A stretch of DNA of 64,000 nucleotides from Escherichia phage vB_EcoM-172859UKE1 (MZ234025.1), one strand, 5' to 3'; positions 28,003 to 34,869 are shown, numbered from the stretch's first letter. Notes: generated by a model not told the origin, from the sequence alone. A program made the numbers and translations.

Positions 28003-28009
28003 ATTAATT

Positions 28010-28025
28010 GGGAGCTTCGGCTCCC
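28010..28025 (+). terminator. UUCG hairpin (weak terminator or RNA stability element)
   Basis: GGGAGC-TTCG-GCTCCC, no U-tract. Confidence 0.35.
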
Positions 28026-28037
28026 ACTGAGGAAATT

Positions 28038-28652
28038 ATGTTTAAAGTTAATACTTTTTATAAAATGAATTTTAAAAATGGGGATATTACTCCACGCCTT
28101 AAAAACATGTTCTCATATGACCTTATTGAGCCTTTTGAAGTTTTAGAAGTTACTGATGCCGGCTCAGTTTGTGAAATTAGAACTTCTGAAGGTAAAATTT
28201 ATCAGGCCGGTGTTGGTAAATTCAGTAATTGTTTTACTTTAATATTCTCGACCGATTTAGATGAGCATTTTATTGAATGTCCTAACCCTAAGGTCTATGA
28301 AGTTCCACATCAAGAAACTAAGAAAAATGGACCGCACGAATATACGAAGGTTGAAACTCCTCACGGCGTGATGTGGCGACATAACTCTCCTTTTGGAAGT
28401 AAAGGAACATTTGCTCAACTGGCTAAGCCCTACGACGATGAAAAATATGTAGTAGTCCTTTTATCTGAACAGGGTACTCAAGACCGTGGATGCCAGCGTT
28501 CCGGTTTATTGAGTGAACTCGAAGCTCATAACCTAGCACGTGAATTCGTTGAGAAAAATCCTGGTTCTGAAGCTCTAGTCATGAAAGCAATTACTCAATA
28601 TATCACTGCTCAACCTGTTGTTCATCCGGTAGAAATTAATTTCATTAAGTAG
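28038..28652 (+). CDS. hypothetical protein
   Basis: ATG 28038 with GAGGAA SD; track start 28008 is TTG inside a hairpin. Confidence 0.5.
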   Translation: MFKVNTFYKMNFKNGDITPRLKNMFSYDLIEPFEVLEVTDAGSVCEIRTSEGKIYQAGVGKFSNCFTLIFSTDLDEHFIECPNPKVYEVPHQETKKNGPHEYTKVETPHGVMWRHNSPFGSKGTFAQLAKPYDDEKYVVVLLSEQGTQDRGCQRSGLLSELEAHNLAREFVEKNPGSEALVMKAITQYITAQPVVHPVEINFIK

Positions 28653-28706: not shown

Positions 28707-28904
28707 ATGAAATTTTTAATAGCACAAACAGTCCAATTAAAAGGTGTTGGAATCCCTGGGATGATTTTTAAAGTTCTCAACGAATTTAAAACTGCCGCTG
28801 GAATTATCAATGAAGCGTATGCTGTTCAATGGGTTGATGGGACTTCTGACATACGTATGGGTAAAGAGTTATCTCCTATTAAAGGGTTGAAACATGTTGA
28901 ATAA
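28707..28904 (+). CDS. hypothetical protein
   Basis: 65-aa ORF. Confidence 0.4.
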   Translation: MKFLIAQTVQLKGVGIPGMIFKVLNEFKTAAGIINEAYAVQWVDGTSDIRMGKELSPIKGLKHVE

Positions 28905-29112
28905 ATTAATCCAGAAATTGTTTGGTACGGAAATGATTGAAGTTACTTATCGTGTAACCGACGTTTTTCCATATTACGCGGAAAACCGTTTAGAACCATA
29001 CGTTACGTCAATTAAAATGCCTAAAAATGACAGAAATTTATCTATCGAAGACCGTATACCTGGATACGGACATTGGGCTGATGTTGAAATTATAAGTGTT
29101 AAAGATGTCTGA
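28894..29112 (+). CDS. hypothetical protein
   Basis: 72-aa ORF overlapping neighbours. Confidence 0.4.
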   Translation: MLNKLIQKLFGTEMIEVTYRVTDVFPYYAENRLEPYVTSIKMPKNDRNLSIEDRIPGYGHWADVEIISVKDV

Positions 29113-29563
29113 ATTAGAAATAAGAAGTAATTTCAAATGGCCGTCATGTGCATTAAGTAACTTTGCTCAATGGCCTTTTGTTATGGATGGTATTCAATTC
29201 GGAGGTCTTGAAGGATTTCTCCAAGGATGTAAGGTGAAAAATGTTGAACAACAAAGACGTATATTTGGGTTGTCTGGATTGGCTGCACAGCAAGCTGGAA
29301 GGTCTTACGCAAGAGCTCAGGACCGTGGGACTCTCTTCTGGTTAGGAGTTCCATTTTCAAGATACTCCGAAGCGTGGAAAGAATTATACACAAATGCATA
29401 TTTTGAAGCCGCGATCCAAAACAAGGGGTTTCGTGATGCCTTACAAGCCTCTAAAGGAAAAATTTTGAAGCACAGCATGGCCAGCCACCTAACAAAAGAT
29501 GATACAATACTAACTGAAGATGAATTTATTGACGTGTTAAACCTATTAAGAGACTCTTTATGA
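29105..29563 (+). CDS. NADAR (YbiA/DUF1768)-like domain protein
   Basis: SCALSNFAQWPFVMDGIQFGGLEGFLQG resembles the NADAR N-terminal signature; ATG 29105 overlapping upstream stop. Confidence 0.55.
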   Translation: MSELEIRSNFKWPSCALSNFAQWPFVMDGIQFGGLEGFLQGCKVKNVEQQRRIFGLSGLAAQQAGRSYARAQDRGTLFWLGVPFSRYSEAWKELYTNAYFEAAIQNKGFRDALQASKGKILKHSMASHLTKDDTILTEDEFIDVLNLLRDSL

Positions 29564-30384
29564 AGCCTACTATTTTGACTGATATTGATGGTGTATGTTT
29601 AAGCTGGCAATCTGGACTTCCTTATTTTGCCCAAAAATATAACCTTCCATTAGAACATATTTTAAAAATGATTCAGGACGAAAAATTTATTTCTCCTGGT
29701 AAACTGTTCAATACCGACGATAACCTTGGTAAACAATTAATAGAAAAATATAATAGCTCTGATTTTATTCGTTACTTAGCGCCTTATTCTGATGCTCTTC
29801 GAGTTATCAATAAACTAAAAGAAGACTATAATTTTGTAGCCGTGACGGCGCTAGGTGATTCAATTGATGCTCGATTGAATAGACAATTTAATTTGAATGC
29901 TTTGTTCCCAGGCGCTTTCTCTGAAGTAATGATGTGTGGACATGATTCTTCAAAGGAACAATTATTCGAACTAGCTAAAACAAAATATAACGTGATTTGT
30001 TACGTTGACGATTTAGCTCATCATTGTGACCATGCGGCAGAAATTCTTAATGTACCGATTTATTGGTTGGCTCGTGGTGAACGTGACGCCATTCCTCGTA
30101 CTGCACAACGTGTACACACGTGGGATGATATTGAATCTCGTTTGGTTCCACCCGAGCATAATTCAGATTCAGATCGTGAAGACCTTTTAAAACGATTGGC
30201 GGATTTGCTTAAAGAATCTGGTGCAACAAGTCCAGGTGCATGGCCTAATCAAATTGGTGGCCCCTCGACAACACGTACTCCATATACCTGGCGAACCCCA
30301 GGACCAACTGATATGCAGCCGTGGTGGACGATTCAAAACTTTCCTTTAGATTCGTCTAAATGGACTTGGTCTATAAATTGTTAA
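29560..30384 (+). CDS. HAD-superfamily hydrolase-like protein with Trp/Pro-rich C-terminal extension
   Basis: N-terminal ILTDIDGV (HAD motif I), later YVDD; C-terminal ~80 aa rich in W, P, T. Confidence 0.5.
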   Translation: MKPTILTDIDGVCLSWQSGLPYFAQKYNLPLEHILKMIQDEKFISPGKLFNTDDNLGKQLIEKYNSSDFIRYLAPYSDALRVINKLKEDYNFVAVTALGDSIDARLNRQFNLNALFPGAFSEVMMCGHDSSKEQLFELAKTKYNVICYVDDLAHHCDHAAEILNVPIYWLARGERDAIPRTAQRVHTWDDIESRLVPPEHNSDSDREDLLKRLADLLKESGATSPGAWPNQIGGPSTTRTPYTWRTPGPTDMQPWWTIQNFPLDSSKWTWSINC

Positions 30385-30393
30385 GGGTTAATT

Positions 30394-30663
30394 ATGTTTG
30401 TAGTTCATGATATTACAGATGGCAAAAATACCACACGTGACTACGGTCACGTTAACATGTTCTTTCGAGACTGGCCATTGTTTCGTTCAGTAAAAGACGC
30501 AGAAATATTTAAAGAGTGTGTTGAACAAGGGTTCATCTACATTTCAGAATACTATGTTGAAGGACTCGGTAAATGGATTACAACTTATCAGAAAACGCTG
30601 AAATCGCTTCTAGATGAAGTGGCTTATAATAGAACCGTAACCAAAATCGAGGACATCAAATGA
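30394..30663 (+). CDS. hypothetical protein
   Basis: 89-aa ORF, AAGGG SD. Confidence 0.45.
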   Translation: MFVVHDITDGKNTTRDYGHVNMFFRDWPLFRSVKDAEIFKECVEQGFIYISEYYVEGLGKWITTYQKTLKSLLDEVAYNRTVTKIEDIK

Positions 30664-32153
30664 TTTTAGATATTTTAAACCAAATAGCTGCGATCGGTTC
30701 TACTAAAACAAAACAGGAAATCCTTAAGAAAAATAAGGACAACAAATTACTTGAACGTGTGTATCGTTTAACATATGCACGTGGTATCCAGTATTATATT
30801 AAGAAATGGCCAGGACCAGGTGAAAGGTCTCAAGCGTATGGTCTTCTTGAATTAGATGACATGTTGGATTTTATTGAGTTCACATTAGCCACTCGTAAAC
30901 TCACTGGTAATGCTGCAATTAAAGAGCTCATGGGTTATATCGCTGATGGTAAACCTGATGATGTAGAAGTCCTTCGTCGTGTAATGATGCGCGACCTTGA
31001 AGTAGGTGCTTCAGTGTCTATCGCGAATAAGGTGTGGCCTGGACTTATTCAATTGCAACCACAGATGTTAGCATCTGCATATGACGAGAAATTGATTACT
31101 AAAAATATTAAATGGCCCGCATTTGCCCAATTAAAAGCAGATGGTGCTCGTTGTTTCGCTGAAGTTCGCGATGATGGTGTTCAATTCTTTTCTCGTGCCG
31201 GCAACGAATATCATGGTCTTACTCTATTAGCGGATGAACTAATGGAAATGACTAAAGAAGCTCGTGAAAGACACCCTAATGGGGTTTTAATCGACGGTGA
31301 ATTAGTTTATCATTCATTTGATATTAAAAAGGCTGTGAGCTCAGGAAATGACCTGTCGTTCTTATTTGGTGATAATGAAGAATCCGAAGAAGTACAGGTT
31401 GCAGACCGTAGCACTTCAAATGGTTTAGCAAATAAATCTCTTCAAGGGACTATTTCTCCTAAAGAAGCGGAAGGTATGGTTCTTCAAGCCTGGGACTACG
31501 TTCCTTTAGATGAAGTCTATTCTGATGGCAAAATTAAAGGTCAGAAATACGATGTTCGTTTTGCTGCTCTTGAAAATATGGCTGAAGGCTTTAAGCGAAT
31601 TGAGCCAATTGAAAATCAGTTAGTTCGTAATCTTGACGAAGCTAAAGTGGTTTATAAAAAATATGTTGACCAAGGTCTTGAAGGTATTATCCTTAAAAAC
31701 CGTGATTCATATTGGGAAAACAAACGCTCTAAGAATCTAATTAAATTTAAAGAAGTTATTGATATCGCTTTAGAAGTTGTAGGATACTATGAACACTCTA
31801 AAGACCCTAACAAATTAGGTGGTGTCGAACTCGTATCACGATGTCGTCGTATTACAACCGATTGCGGTTCAGGTTTTAAAGATACAACTCATAAAACAGT
31901 TGACGGTGTAAAGGTTCTTATTCCTTTAGACGAGCGTCATGATTTAGACCGTGAACGATTAATGACCGAAGCTCGTGAAGGTAAATTAATTGGACGTATC
32001 GCTGATTGTGAATGTAATGGTTGGGTTCATTCTAAAGGCCGTGAAGGTACTGTAGGTATTTTCCTTCCAATTATTAAAGGGTTCCGTTTTGATAAAACAG
32101 AAGCGGATTCGTTTGAAGACGTATTTGGACCGTGGTCCCAGACAGGTTTATAA
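30660..32153 (+). CDS. 30: ATP-dependent DNA ligase
   Basis: 497 aa; KADGAR adenylation motif, MILDILNQIAAIGSTK N-terminus, matches T4 gp30. Confidence 0.97.
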   Translation: MILDILNQIAAIGSTKTKQEILKKNKDNKLLERVYRLTYARGIQYYIKKWPGPGERSQAYGLLELDDMLDFIEFTLATRKLTGNAAIKELMGYIADGKPDDVEVLRRVMMRDLEVGASVSIANKVWPGLIQLQPQMLASAYDEKLITKNIKWPAFAQLKADGARCFAEVRDDGVQFFSRAGNEYHGLTLLADELMEMTKEARERHPNGVLIDGELVYHSFDIKKAVSSGNDLSFLFGDNEESEEVQVADRSTSNGLANKSLQGTISPKEAEGMVLQAWDYVPLDEVYSDGKIKGQKYDVRFAALENMAEGFKRIEPIENQLVRNLDEAKVVYKKYVDQGLEGIILKNRDSYWENKRSKNLIKFKEVIDIALEVVGYYEHSKDPNKLGGVELVSRCRRITTDCGSGFKDTTHKTVDGVKVLIPLDERHDLDRERLMTEAREGKLIGRIADCECNGWVHSKGREGTVGIFLPIIKGFRFDKTEADSFEDVFGPWSQTGL

Positions 32154-32341
32154 TGAAAGCTTATTTAGAAACAGTTATTGTAGCTAAGAAGGATGGTGGA
32201 GATGTTTCCACCTCTTGTTCCCAAATTGTATTAGATTTTCCTAATAACGATTCCTATCATATTTTTATGGACAATTTCGATAAGTACGAAAAAGGCTCTA
32301 ATTTTGAAGTTTATCGTACTTTGCTTCCGATTGTGGATTAA
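32153..32341 (+). CDS. hypothetical protein
   Basis: 62 aa from ATG overlapping ligase stop (TAATG); terminator follows. Confidence 0.4.
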   Translation: MKAYLETVIVAKKDGGDVSTSCSQIVLDFPNNDSYHIFMDNFDKYEKGSNFEVYRTLLPIVD

Positions 32342-32361
32342 GAGCCTTCGGGCTCTTTTTG
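32341..32361 (+). terminator. rho-independent terminator upstream of alt
   Basis: AGAGCC-TTCG-GGCTCT then TTTTT. Confidence 0.7.
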
Positions 32362-32396
32362 GCATAAATATAAATTATTACTAAAAGGAAAACACT

Positions 32397-34484
32397 ATGT
32401 CTGAACAATTAAATGAAGTGTTTGAATCTGAAGGCAGTCTTCCTGTCGTCAATTTGAACCCTAAAGCTAAAGTTCCACAAGTCTGGAAAATTGGTGATAT
32501 CGATACAAATATTGTAGTTCGTTTATTCTCTTACCTTTCCGAAGGCGACGCTGTAAAACAAGTTAAACTTGGCGACAAATACGCTCATGTTGTTATTATG
32601 AGTCTGTCTGAAAAGGGTAATCTCGCTGAATTGAAAAATGGCCTTGGTCCTGCTCCTATTGATGCAATCAACACCATTTTCAATACAGTATATGAACAGG
32701 TTAAAGCTCTTCGTATGGATGCAGTTCTATTCCGATTCCCTACCAAGAAATTGAAAGGACGTGGACAGCAGCTTCAAACTCTTCTTGCTCGTTTAGTTTC
32801 TACTAAAACCGGTGGTCGTTTTAAAGTATTGTCGGCAATGTATCAATTCACAGGTAAACACACCTATGTAATGATGGTTCGTAAAAATGCCAACATTGAA
32901 GATATTAAAGGCATCCCTAACATTAACACAGAGTTATACACGAAAGTAGATTCTGATGTTGGCGAAGTTTATGTGAGTAAAAAGACTGGCGAAAAGGTCA
33001 CCAAAGAAACGGCTATCGCTGGTTCTATTGCTGCTGTAGAAGAAAAACGTAAAGATAAGCCTGTTATTGCTCGTACTAAAATTTCTCGTCGTGCTATTGC
33101 AGCAAGTCAATCTTTAGAAGCTGACCGCCAAGAAGGTGAGTTATTCCAGAAATACGAAAATTCTGCTAAAGAAGTTAGTGGCCCAGCTACAGCCGAATTA
33201 CTTCCTGAAGCATATGAAATCGTACTAGCCCAAGCATCATCCACAGCAAAAGGCACTTTAGTTGCTGATATCGAAAATAAGATTTATAATCGTATTGATG
33301 AATCCTTTAGATTTGCTGATGAAGTTTCTTATGGTAGTGTTATTAAGCCAACTTTAGAAAAGTTTGCTAAGAAAATTAAAACTGAAAAAACAACATCTGT
33401 TAAAGCATTAGCTGCTTTTGTTGAAGCTGCAAACGAAATTGCAGACTCTATTAAAGACGAATGGTTTGAAGATTTTAGACGTGATAATTTCCAACTGGCC
33501 GACGATGTTTTAGCTGAAGTATCTGAAAAAACTTGGAAACAACGTAAATCAGCGTTCTTGTCTAATGTGATGTATACTTATGCACGAGAATCGGCTAGAG
33601 GCACCTTTAATATAACAATGAATCGGGACCCTAAACAATACTCTGTTGCTGAAAAACGAGCTATTCGTGAATATGCCTCTTCTGCGTATACCGATATCAA
33701 TAATATGTTGTTAGGTCGTTATAAACCAGATTTTTACGATGTTGCAGATGAAGATGAAGTTAAACGCGCTATTGATGGTCTTGATTCAGCGGTTTTAAAT
33801 GGAGATCGTTTACCTGAAGGGCTAACGTTATATAGAGCTCAGTCTATCAGAATGCCTATTTACGAAGCAATGGTTAAAAATAAGGTATTCTACTTCAGAA
33901 ACTATGTTTCCACTTCACTAGCTCCTATTATTTTCGGTGGGTTTAAAGAGAACGTTGCCCTTGGACTTGCTCCTGAAGAAGTTCGCAAAGAGCTTAACAT
34001 TGACAATAATGACGAAGGTGTTACTATTTCTCCTAGTCAAGTAAGAACAGCTATGCATGCACCAGAACAAATCCGTGTTAACGTTGGATGGGCTATTGAT
34101 GGCGCCCATAAAGTTAACGTGATTTATCCAGGACAGTTGAGTAATCACCCTAATGAGCAAGAAATTATTTTGCCTAGAGGCATTCTCTTGCAGATAAATA
34201 AAATTACAGATGCGTCATCTGACACTGGTGCAGGTTTAGAATCCAACCTTAAATTTATTCAAGCTGAAGTCATGTCCTCGGACCAGTTGGATGAAGCTGT
34301 CATTTACGATGGTGATGTTCTCATGGAAACAGGCGAGGTGGTTGCTATGACGGGTGAAATTGAATCAGATGAGCCGGTATCGTTCTCCTCATTTGTAGAA
34401 AAAACTAGTGCACCTAAAGGTTTGAAATTGTTAGCATCTTTAATGGATTTAGAATCAGTTCCGTTTAAATTTGTCCAAGGATAG
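32397..34484 (+). CDS. alt: ADP-ribosyltransferase Alt-like (virion-packaged)
   Basis: 695 aa; C-terminal R-S-ExE ART motifs (LYRAQS, YVSTSLAP, NEQEI); position between ligase and gene 54. Confidence 0.8.
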   Translation: MSEQLNEVFESEGSLPVVNLNPKAKVPQVWKIGDIDTNIVVRLFSYLSEGDAVKQVKLGDKYAHVVIMSLSEKGNLAELKNGLGPAPIDAINTIFNTVYEQVKALRMDAVLFRFPTKKLKGRGQQLQTLLARLVSTKTGGRFKVLSAMYQFTGKHTYVMMVRKNANIEDIKGIPNINTELYTKVDSDVGEVYVSKKTGEKVTKETAIAGSIAAVEEKRKDKPVIARTKISRRAIAASQSLEADRQEGELFQKYENSAKEVSGPATAELLPEAYEIVLAQASSTAKGTLVADIENKIYNRIDESFRFADEVSYGSVIKPTLEKFAKKIKTEKTTSVKALAAFVEAANEIADSIKDEWFEDFRRDNFQLADDVLAEVSEKTWKQRKSAFLSNVMYTYARESARGTFNITMNRDPKQYSVAEKRAIREYASSAYTDINNMLLGRYKPDFYDVADEDEVKRAIDGLDSAVLNGDRLPEGLTLYRAQSIRMPIYEAMVKNKVFYFRNYVSTSLAPIIFGGFKENVALGLAPEEVRKELNIDNNDEGVTISPSQVRTAMHAPEQIRVNVGWAIDGAHKVNVIYPGQLSNHPNEQEIILPRGILLQINKITDASSDTGAGLESNLKFIQAEVMSSDQLDEAVIYDGDVLMETGEVVAMTGEIESDEPVSFSSFVEKTSAPKGLKLLASLMDLESVPFKFVQG

Positions 34485-34513
34485 TTTACAAACACATGGA
34501 TGTGTGATACTAT
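34484..34513 (+). promoter_or_regulatory. T4-type early promoter
   Basis: GTTTAC, 18-nt spacer, TACTAT; sits at the 3-prime end of alt. Confidence 0.65.
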
Positions 34514-34542
34514 CATCCCATCAACAACATGAGGAAAACGTT

Positions 34543-34836
34543 ATGAAATCTATGCTTCGCTTTAATGGTCAAGAACTAGTAGTTGAAGATGCTATCCCAG
34601 CGGATGATGTTTTTAACGAAGCTGTGATTGACGAATTGAATCGAGTATTCCCAGGTGCATTCCATATTGCTATGGAACCTCTTAAAAACTTTCGTGACCC
34701 TGAGCACACTGATCAAATTTTTATCGGTGTAGTGACAGGTCATTTAGAAACAGAGGTACCAATGGTCGTATTAGTTAAATACTCTAAAGATGATACTCCA
34801 TTCCGAGCACCAGCATTCCTTTCATTCCGTAAATAA
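34543..34836 (+). CDS. hypothetical protein
   Basis: 97 aa from ATG 34543 with GAGGAAAA SD and early promoter; bidirectional terminator downstream. Confidence 0.45.
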   Translation: MKSMLRFNGQELVVEDAIPADDVFNEAVIDELNRVFPGAFHIAMEPLKNFRDPEHTDQIFIGVVTGHLETEVPMVVLVKYSKDDTPFRAPAFLSFRK

Positions 34837-34845
34837 ACCCCTAAA

Positions 34846-34869
34846 GGGAGACGTTGTCTCCCTTTTTTT
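34846..34869. terminator. bidirectional terminator between the alt-distal ORF and gene 54
   Basis: GGGAGAC-GTT-GTCTCCC then T7; convergent genes on both sides. Confidence 0.7.

Follow-up and report, generated by a model that had tools for sequence, protein, structure and literature searches.

A predicted anti-DarTG1 NADAR and a ligase-linked HAD hydrolase in the T4-like gene 30 block of Escherichia phage vB_EcoM-172859UKE1

In a 64,000-nt stretch of the genome of Escherichia phage vB_EcoM-172859UKE1 (MZ234025.1; hereafter the window), genes for a NADAR-like protein (30.3, adfN) and a HAD-like protein (30.2) share the block at 29105–34484 on the plus strand with the genes for DNA ligase and the ADP-ribosyltransferase Alt. 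This raises the question of whether these genes form a functional unit that makes, edits and recycles ADP-ribose modifications, as a preceding sequence-only reading of the locus had considered, or whether they are neighbours for another reason. The explanation that we favour, to which we assign a probability of about 0.86, is that the block was inherited as it stands in T4, with an intact adfN coding for an anti-DarTG1 NADAR and with an NT5C-like phosphatase, gp30.2, that is tied to the ligase gene, and that there is no ADP-ribose operon.

The region is the conserved 30.3-30.2-30.1-30(ligase)-alt.1-alt block of a T4-like (Mosigvirus-type) phage. Open reading frame (ORF) calling showed a tightly packed run of ORFs on the plus strand from 28.9 to 34.5 kb, and every ORF was present at the coordinates given beforehand; the motifs had also been read correctly throughout. 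The 5.5-kb block has 98.7% DNA identity with many sequenced Escherichia phages, for example vB_EcoM_G53 and APCEc01, which excludes a chance pattern. One close relative (98.4% identical) is classed as Mosigvirus, and the gene order in T4 and RB69 is identical to that in the window. Genes 30.4 and 30.3 overlap by 8 nt, 30.3 and 30.2 by 4 nt (ATGA), and 30.1 and 30 by 4 nt.

The ORF at 29105–29563 encodes 152 amino acids (aa) when read from its ATG (the longest ORF begins with GTG at 29096) and contains SCALSNFAQWPFVMDGIQFGGLEGFLQGCK. Its product matched the Pfam family PF08010 (Phage_30_3) with E=2e-69 and 232 bits (cut-off 36), and 146 of its 152 residues (96%) are identical in T4 gp30.3. A single-sequence phmmer search of gp30.3 against PDB sequences returned nothing, so that profile and fold searches were needed. 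The profile built from 60 gp30.3 homologues had only one meaningful PDB match, YbiA (2b3w, E=0.009), through the core SNFA..P...DG.....E..FQ..KF, and one of the homologues (P0064) bears PF08010 and the NADAR family PF08719 together. The AlphaFold2 (AF2) model of gp30.3 had a predicted local distance difference test score (pLDDT) of 92.8 and a predicted template modelling (TM) score of 0.88. When it was compared with the PDB in Foldseek, ranks 1–3 were taken by the three solved NADARs, namely YbiA (2b3w, probability 1.00), the Phytophthora NADAR (PnNADAR) with ADP-ribose (8bau, 1.00) and the Geobacter lovleyi DarG1 NADAR (8bat, 0.97), and all other matches had E>2.

The active site is conserved as well. 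Invariant in the 60 homologues, which reach down to 35% identity, are P13, A16-L-S-N-F20, F25, E36-G-F38, Q40, K43 and H123, among others. Glu36 and Lys43 are spaced by seven residues, exactly as E43 and K50 in PnNADAR, and His123 sits in the last strand (E120-123) of the AF2 model. At this last-strand position, YbiA has Glu, DarG1 has Asp and the phage NADARs have His (PMC11125620, PMC11543638, PMC12945103), and the replacement of Glu/Asp by His defines the phage NADARs (PMC11543638). Since the fold, the seven-residue Glu-Lys spacing and the last-strand His are all present, gp30.3 belongs to this subfamily. Thus, the NADAR (YbiA/DUF1768)-like signature noticed from the sequence is confirmed by fold, profile and catalytic residues. 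The structural comparison with YbiA that had been proposed ranked 2b3w first, and the placement by profile succeeded through the match of the homologue profile to YbiA, PF08719 itself not being matched by the window protein.

T4 annotates an additional out-of-frame gene, 30.3', inside 30.3. The same frame in the window (29241–29468, +1) is broken by a stop codon; 30.3' is thus not conserved and is probably no real gene.

The function of the T4 orthologue has been established experimentally. Johannesman et al. (Nat Commun 2025, PMC11825919) mapped T4 gene 30.3 as the locus that carries DarTG1 resistance from T2 and T4 into RB69 and renamed it adfN, for anti-DarT factor NADAR. According to the same work, AdfN of T4 is both necessary and sufficient to overcome DarTG1, its deletion renders T4 sensitive to DarTG1, and the purified protein strips ADP-ribose from DarT1-modified DNA in vitro, an activity impaired by the E36A and K43A substitutions. 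Full activity requires the C-terminal helix, as truncation at the frameshift point of RB69 lowers activity (PMC11825919). The T4 NADAR hydrolyses guanine-ADP-ribose and not thymidine-ADP-ribose, and shows no antitoxin action in uninfected cells (Toxins 2024, PMC11125620). Hydrolysis of guanine-ADP-ribose by the NADARs tested, including the T4 enzyme, was also reported in a 2026 paper, which cites earlier work showing that all four NADAR families remove this modification from RNA, and in whose summary table the phage NADAR does not appear as an eraser of cytidine-ADP-ribose (PMC12945103).

A three-way DNA alignment showed that 30.3 of the window lacks the extra T that RB69 has at gene position 411, and reads through like the T4 gene. 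In RB69, this insertion removes the last helix, and the phage is DarTG1-sensitive (PMC11825919). As adfN of the window looks functional and, unlike the RB69 gene, is intact, we predict that the phage is DarTG1-resistant. Both the chemistry and the anti-DarTG1 phenotype are carried over here from the T4 protein to a copy that is 96% identical to it. The host DarT1 toxin would ADP-ribosylate guanine in phage DNA as it enters or replicates; AdfN would cleave the N-glycosidic bond and release free ADP-ribose, and with guanine restored, replication could proceed. By analogy with E43, E125 and K50 of PnNADAR, and not from the model, Glu36 and His123 would work at the distal ribose, and Lys43 at the diphosphate. 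The proposal that a phage NADAR counters a DarTG-like defence was therefore right and had already been published for the T4 orthologue (PMC11825919, PMC11125620); the mechanism is known and not new. What the locus adds is that reasoning from the sequence arrived at a mechanism that has since been proven, the erasure of DarT1 guanine ADP-ribosylation by an orphan, antitoxin-like phage NADAR.

We then considered the HAD-like gene. The protein gp30.2 starts with MKPTILTDIDGV, which is HAD motif I. Across 59 gp30.2 homologues, D8, D10, K132, D150 and D151 never vary, and conservation of T96 is 90% or higher; these residues make up the HAD motifs DxD, S/T, K and DD, and the motifs are kept in 98 more distant members. 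The recognition of HAD motif I (ILTDIDGV) in ORF 29560–30384 was hence correct, and all four motifs are conserved. No significant Pfam match was found for gp30.2 (HAD_2 reached 16 bits against a cut-off of 23.8), and in its homologues no precomputed Pfam domain covers the HAD core; Pfam has no model made for this family. The AF2 model has a pLDDT above 90 across most of aa 1 to about 195, with a helical insertion at aa ~16–86 corresponding to a C1 cap; beyond the core there is a helix (aa 202–220) and, after it, a tail that is disordered and rich in Trp and Pro (about aa 222–274). Foldseek gave 109 PDB matches with E≤0.001 for this model; the best 50 listed were all of HAD fold, and among the matches listed the best target-normalised TM-scores, about 0.62–0.69, were those of 5'(3')-deoxyribonucleotidases. 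We conclude that gp30.2 is a true C1-capped member of the HAD hydrolases.

In an exhaustive profile search, the gp30.2 family comprised ~1,050 clusters at 50% identity. The family NT5C (PF06941) did not match the window protein and matched 8 of the 59 close homologues weakly; among the 98 distant relatives it matched 34, more than any other family did, with a best E of 4e-10, and a single protein (P0310) passed the gathering score. The NT5C 5'(3')-deoxyribonucleotidases (human and mouse cdN and mdN, and 3bwv of S. epidermidis) are therefore probably the nearest named family, and gp30.2 is likely to be a divergent NT5C-like small-molecule phosphatase, a nucleotidase. A small-molecule substrate is suggested by the helical C1 cap, and a (deoxy)nucleoside monophosphate is the most likely one, as judged from the way in which the family grades into the NT5C deoxyribonucleotidases. 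Following the standard assignment of HAD motifs, the enzyme would be Mg-dependent, with Asp8 as the nucleophile, Asp10 as the acid/base, Thr96 and Lys132 binding the phosphate and Asp150/151 binding the metal. Our literature searches found no paper on the function of gp30.2, so that a protein with more than 1,400 phage records is uncharacterised in the literature found; if it is a deoxynucleoside monophosphate (dNMP) phosphatase, it would add an unrecognised step to T4-type nucleotide metabolism.

Outside its core, the gp30.2 family is variable. The C-terminal part (30150–30384, aa ~197–274) differs greatly in length, family proteins having 196–347 aa. Many homologues, including that of T4, end in a short conserved motif, G(T)GIEYLxxQPT, that could be a protein-docking peptide; it is absent from the window copy, whose tail has only a TWRTPG island (aa 243–248) in common with that of T4. 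Among the distant members, some are much longer, with the domain at the C-terminus in P0238 (591 aa) and P0276 (660 aa) and at the N-terminus in P0183 (430 aa) and P0227 (365 aa). These may be fusions hinting at function; the remainder of all four had no Pfam match and gave no functional hint.

The third protein in question, Alt, is annotated as such in relatives at the same position. Its motifs, R480, S505-T-S507 and E587-Q-E589, lie within the PF03496 (ADPrib_exo_Tox) domain at aa 413–610, in agreement with the R/STS/ExE ADP-ribosyltransferase motifs previously described for it. Between alt.1 and alt there is a GC hairpin, GAGCCTTCGGGCTC, and 3' of it TATAAATT, a 7/8 match to the T4 late-promoter box; at the same place, T4 has the hairpin GGCCTTCGGGCC followed by the late-promoter box TATAAATA. 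This arrangement suggests that alt may be transcribed separately from the 30.x genes. Alt is a late protein in T4. The hairpin and the late-promoter-like box also fit the T4 record, which notes Alt as a packaged protein. In the window phage, alt would likewise be a late gene with its own promoter, coding for a protein that is carried in the virion and modifies proteins of the host. A scan of 26–35 kb for sigma-70 promoters and terminators gave 33 sites versus 26.8 ± 4.9 in shuffled sequence, which is not clearly above expectation, and was not used.

To find out which genes stay together, we took two sets of IMG/VR loci, 80 with a gp30.3 relative and 78 with a gp30.2 relative, and scored the neighbours with profiles. 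Of the 78 HAD loci, 72 had the ligase gene in the 6 kb downstream, and in 64 it came within 400 nt. In 64 of the 78, including Acinetobacter, Aeromonas and large Vibrio phages, the HAD gene stands directly upstream of ligase, or of gp30.1 and then ligase. On the upstream side, 37 of the 78 loci had a NADAR gene within 6 kb of the HAD gene, and in 21 the two were adjacent; only about 24 of the 80 NADAR loci had a HAD gene within 6 kb. Alt homologues occurred near NADAR only in loci with the T4-like order, that is, in close relatives and three more distant phages. When the ORFs within 3 kb of NADAR were clustered, no family recurred in distant phages. In at least 10 complete T4-like genomes, which appear in both locus lists, the NADAR and HAD genes are about 55–60 kb apart. 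The co-occurrence of the two genes is uninformative, because both are near-universal in T4-like phages (1,510 records for gp30.3 and 1,439 for gp30.2). HAD–ligase is thus the one persistent linkage, and in evolution gp30.2 has stayed with the ligase gene and not with adfN; as all the loci showing this linkage are from Straboviridae, it may reflect either inherited order or a functional tie. For NADAR, HAD and Alt, the evidence favours inherited gene order over an ADP-ribose-processing module as the reason for their proximity.

A functional ADP-ribose module, in which the NADAR would trim the products of Alt and of ModA/ModB, encoded elsewhere in the genome, and the HAD protein would dispose of the released sugar phosphate or nucleotide, is consequently very unlikely. 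The shared strand of the genes and their closeness, all within 5.4 kb, would agree with it, and an earlier comparative study did note that T4-like NADARs are encoded together with ADP-ribosyltransferase genes as early genes (PMC9503650). However, alt has its own hairpin and late-promoter-like box, about 56 of the 80 NADAR loci have no HAD gene within 6 kb, and near the NADAR, Alt homologues are confined to loci with the T4-like order. The chemistry does not fit either: Alt is in an Arg-specific exotoxin family, whereas the activities on record for the T4 NADAR concern guanine-ADP-ribose in DNA and RNA and do not include Arg-ADP-ribose on proteins, the product of Alt (PMC11125620, PMC12945103). 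Moreover, free ADP-ribose, the NADAR product, should offer no phosphomonoester to a HAD phosphatase. For these reasons, the ideas that the NADAR edits ADP-ribosylation made by the phage itself and that the HAD enzyme processes the NADAR product found no support. The ligase linkage raises another possibility for gp30.2: it could be a 3'-phosphatase that heals nucleic-acid ends, in the manner of the HAD domain in T4 polynucleotide kinase, and makes nicks ready for the ligase encoded next to it. We consider this unlikely, the helical C1 cap and the gradation into NT5C pointing to small molecules. As to the NADAR itself, its main target might be soluble ADP-ribose-derived immune signals or guanine-ADP-ribosylated RNA instead of DarT1-modified DNA. 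Such a role was proposed from gene context before the experiments (PMC9503650), and the removal of guanine-ADP-ribose from RNA in vitro by all NADAR families agrees with it (PMC12945103), but deletion of adfN sensitises T4 to DarTG1 and the enzyme strips ADP-ribose from DNA (PMC11825919), and no report of a soluble AdfN substrate was found in the literature consulted, so that we regard this target as quite improbable.

Several observations nevertheless weigh against our preferred explanation, an inherited block with an intact anti-DarTG1 NADAR and a ligase-tied phosphatase. The window protein had no direct PF08719 (NADAR) match at E≤0.1, and its link to the NADARs rests on the fold, the profile match at E=0.009 and the literature. 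Compared with T4 AdfN, it carries six substitutions, K11R, E89P, I120V, M125I, H128G and D139A. AdfN-T4 is itself fully active only in T-even infection (PMC11825919). The ATGA overlap of adfN and 30.2, found in the window and in T4, suggests translational coupling, and the adjacency of the two genes throughout the Tevenvirinae and in some Acinetobacter and Aeromonas phages leaves room for a functional tie within this clade. The last points lead to the idea that gp30.2 is the T-even factor that AdfN-T4 needs to be fully active in vivo, either by binding AdfN as a partner or, as an accessory enzyme, by clearing away a nucleotide product that inhibits. Indeed, AdfN-T4 rescues RB69 but fails with T5 and Bas25, it does not neutralise DarT1 in cells that are not infected, and the authors suspect that an additional T-even protein is required (PMC11825919); RB69, in which rescue succeeds, has a gp30.2 core that is 99% identical to that of the window. 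If this were true, 30.3-30.2 would be a two-gene counter-defence unit in the Tevenvirinae. We nevertheless rate it as very improbable: AdfN is active alone in vitro (PMC11825919, PMC11125620), the genes are not neighbours in most loci and are separated by tens of kilobases in the complete T4-like genomes mentioned above, and gp30.2 is one of well over a hundred T-even-specific proteins, which makes the prior low.

The features of the block are collected in Table 1. The sequence-only reading had the HAD and NADAR genes directly upstream of ligase and alt; this order stands, and gp30.1 and alt.1, which it did not mention, lie in between. For gp30.3, gp30.2, gp30.1 and alt.1, NCBIfam and PADLOC gave nothing useful.

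Table 1 Features of the 30.3–alt block and its immediate upstream neighbour in the window
Feature	Position	Strand	Basis or remark
gp30.4 homologue	28894–29112	+	PHROG 2042, E=2e-35; stop codon overlaps adfN start by 8 nt, likewise in T4
adfN (gene 30.3), stand-alone NADAR, predicted guanine-ADP-ribose DNA glycohydrolase, 152 aa, full length	29105–29563	+	PF08010, fold, 146/152 residues identical to T4 gp30.3
Codons of Glu36 (29210–29212, GAA) and Lys43 (29231–29233, AAG), catalytic pair	29210–29233	+	Invariant in 60 homologues
Codon of His123 (CAC), third active-site residue, marks phage NADAR subfamily	29471–29473	+	Invariant in 60 homologues
C-terminal helix of AdfN, aa 138–151, intact	29516–29557	+	AF2 model; RB69 frameshift absent
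gp30.2, predicted C1-capped HAD-superfamily phosphatase, 274 aa	29560–30384	+	
gp30.1 (DUF3045), between HAD gene and ligase	30394–30663	+	PF11243, 1.4e-26
Gene 30, ATP-dependent DNA ligase	30660–32153	+	PF01068, 1.9e-26; syntenic with gene 30 of T4 and RB69
alt.1 homologue (Pfam 'Phage_blade'), between ligase and alt	32153–32341	+	PF24647, 1.6e-29
GC hairpin GAGCCTTCGGGCTC, then TATAAATT, just upstream of alt	32342–32376	+	Sequence inspection
alt, Arg-specific mono-ADP-ribosyltransferase with R-S-ExE signature	32397–34484	+	PF03496, 2.5e-27 over aa 413–610

On both sides of the block, the surroundings vary between phages. Upstream, an ORF of 204/214 aa (28008–28652, with an ATG at 28038; PHROG 17531) stands between gp30.7 and gp30.5, in a slot that is taken in T4 by an unrelated gp30.6 of 95 aa and in the corresponding stretch of RB69 by a gp30.6 of 93 aa. 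The 204-aa ORF (28038–28652) had no match in Pfam, NCBIfam or PADLOC; that it is a diverged gp30.6 was tested and rejected, and the slot looks like a variable cassette amid synteny. Downstream, only one alt is present in the window, and the region behind it (34471–34865) holds an alt.-3-like ORF (annotated as DUF5498 in a 98.4%-identical relative) and a strong terminator-like hairpin at 34843–34865. In several relatives (loci L004–L006 and L010–L014), alt is followed by another alt-like ORF or by fragments of alt.

Among known systems, T5 Dmp invites comparison with gp30.2, since Dmp, the classic phage dNMP phosphatase, is likewise phage-encoded, has a HAD-type motif I (DLDGT) and acts on dNMPs, so that it could be a functional analogue. 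As a relative it was rejected, because the two proteins align only at motif I (hhalign probability 1.5%), and Dmp has no Pfam match.

For gp30.3, YbiA (2b3w) is the best structural match (E=7e-5, TM-score 0.68, identity 19%), but it has Glu in place of the last-strand His and belongs to a host operon with a different physiology (PMC11125620). The NADARs of DarG1 (E. coli C7; Geobacter lovleyi, 8bat) and of Phytophthora (8bau) have the fold, the Glu-x6-Lys arrangement and the guanine-ADP-ribose glycohydrolase chemistry in common with the window protein, whereas identity is only 15–18% and the third catalytic position, His in the window protein, is occupied by Asp (DarG1) or Glu (PnNADAR). Unlike them, the phage NADAR is a bare core without N-terminal extensions (PMC12945103). 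No DarT gene is paired with the NADAR of the window, which is flanked by gp30.4 and gp30.2, and the only nearby ADP-ribosyltransferase is Alt (PF03496), 2.8 kb downstream; therefore, adfN is an orphan antitoxin-like gene here, as it is in T4. With AdfN of T4, the window protein has in common its length of 152 aa, E36/K43/H123, the C-terminal helix, the place between 30.4 and 30.2 and the 8-nt and 4-nt overlaps, although the backbone of the window phage is Mosigvirus-like and not that of a Tequatrovirus. RB69 shares a closely related Mosigvirus backbone and is nearly identical in DNA across the gene, apart from the frameshift. The window thus presents a Mosigvirus-type phage with an intact allele, which, unlike its relative RB69, is predicted to plate on DarTG1 hosts.

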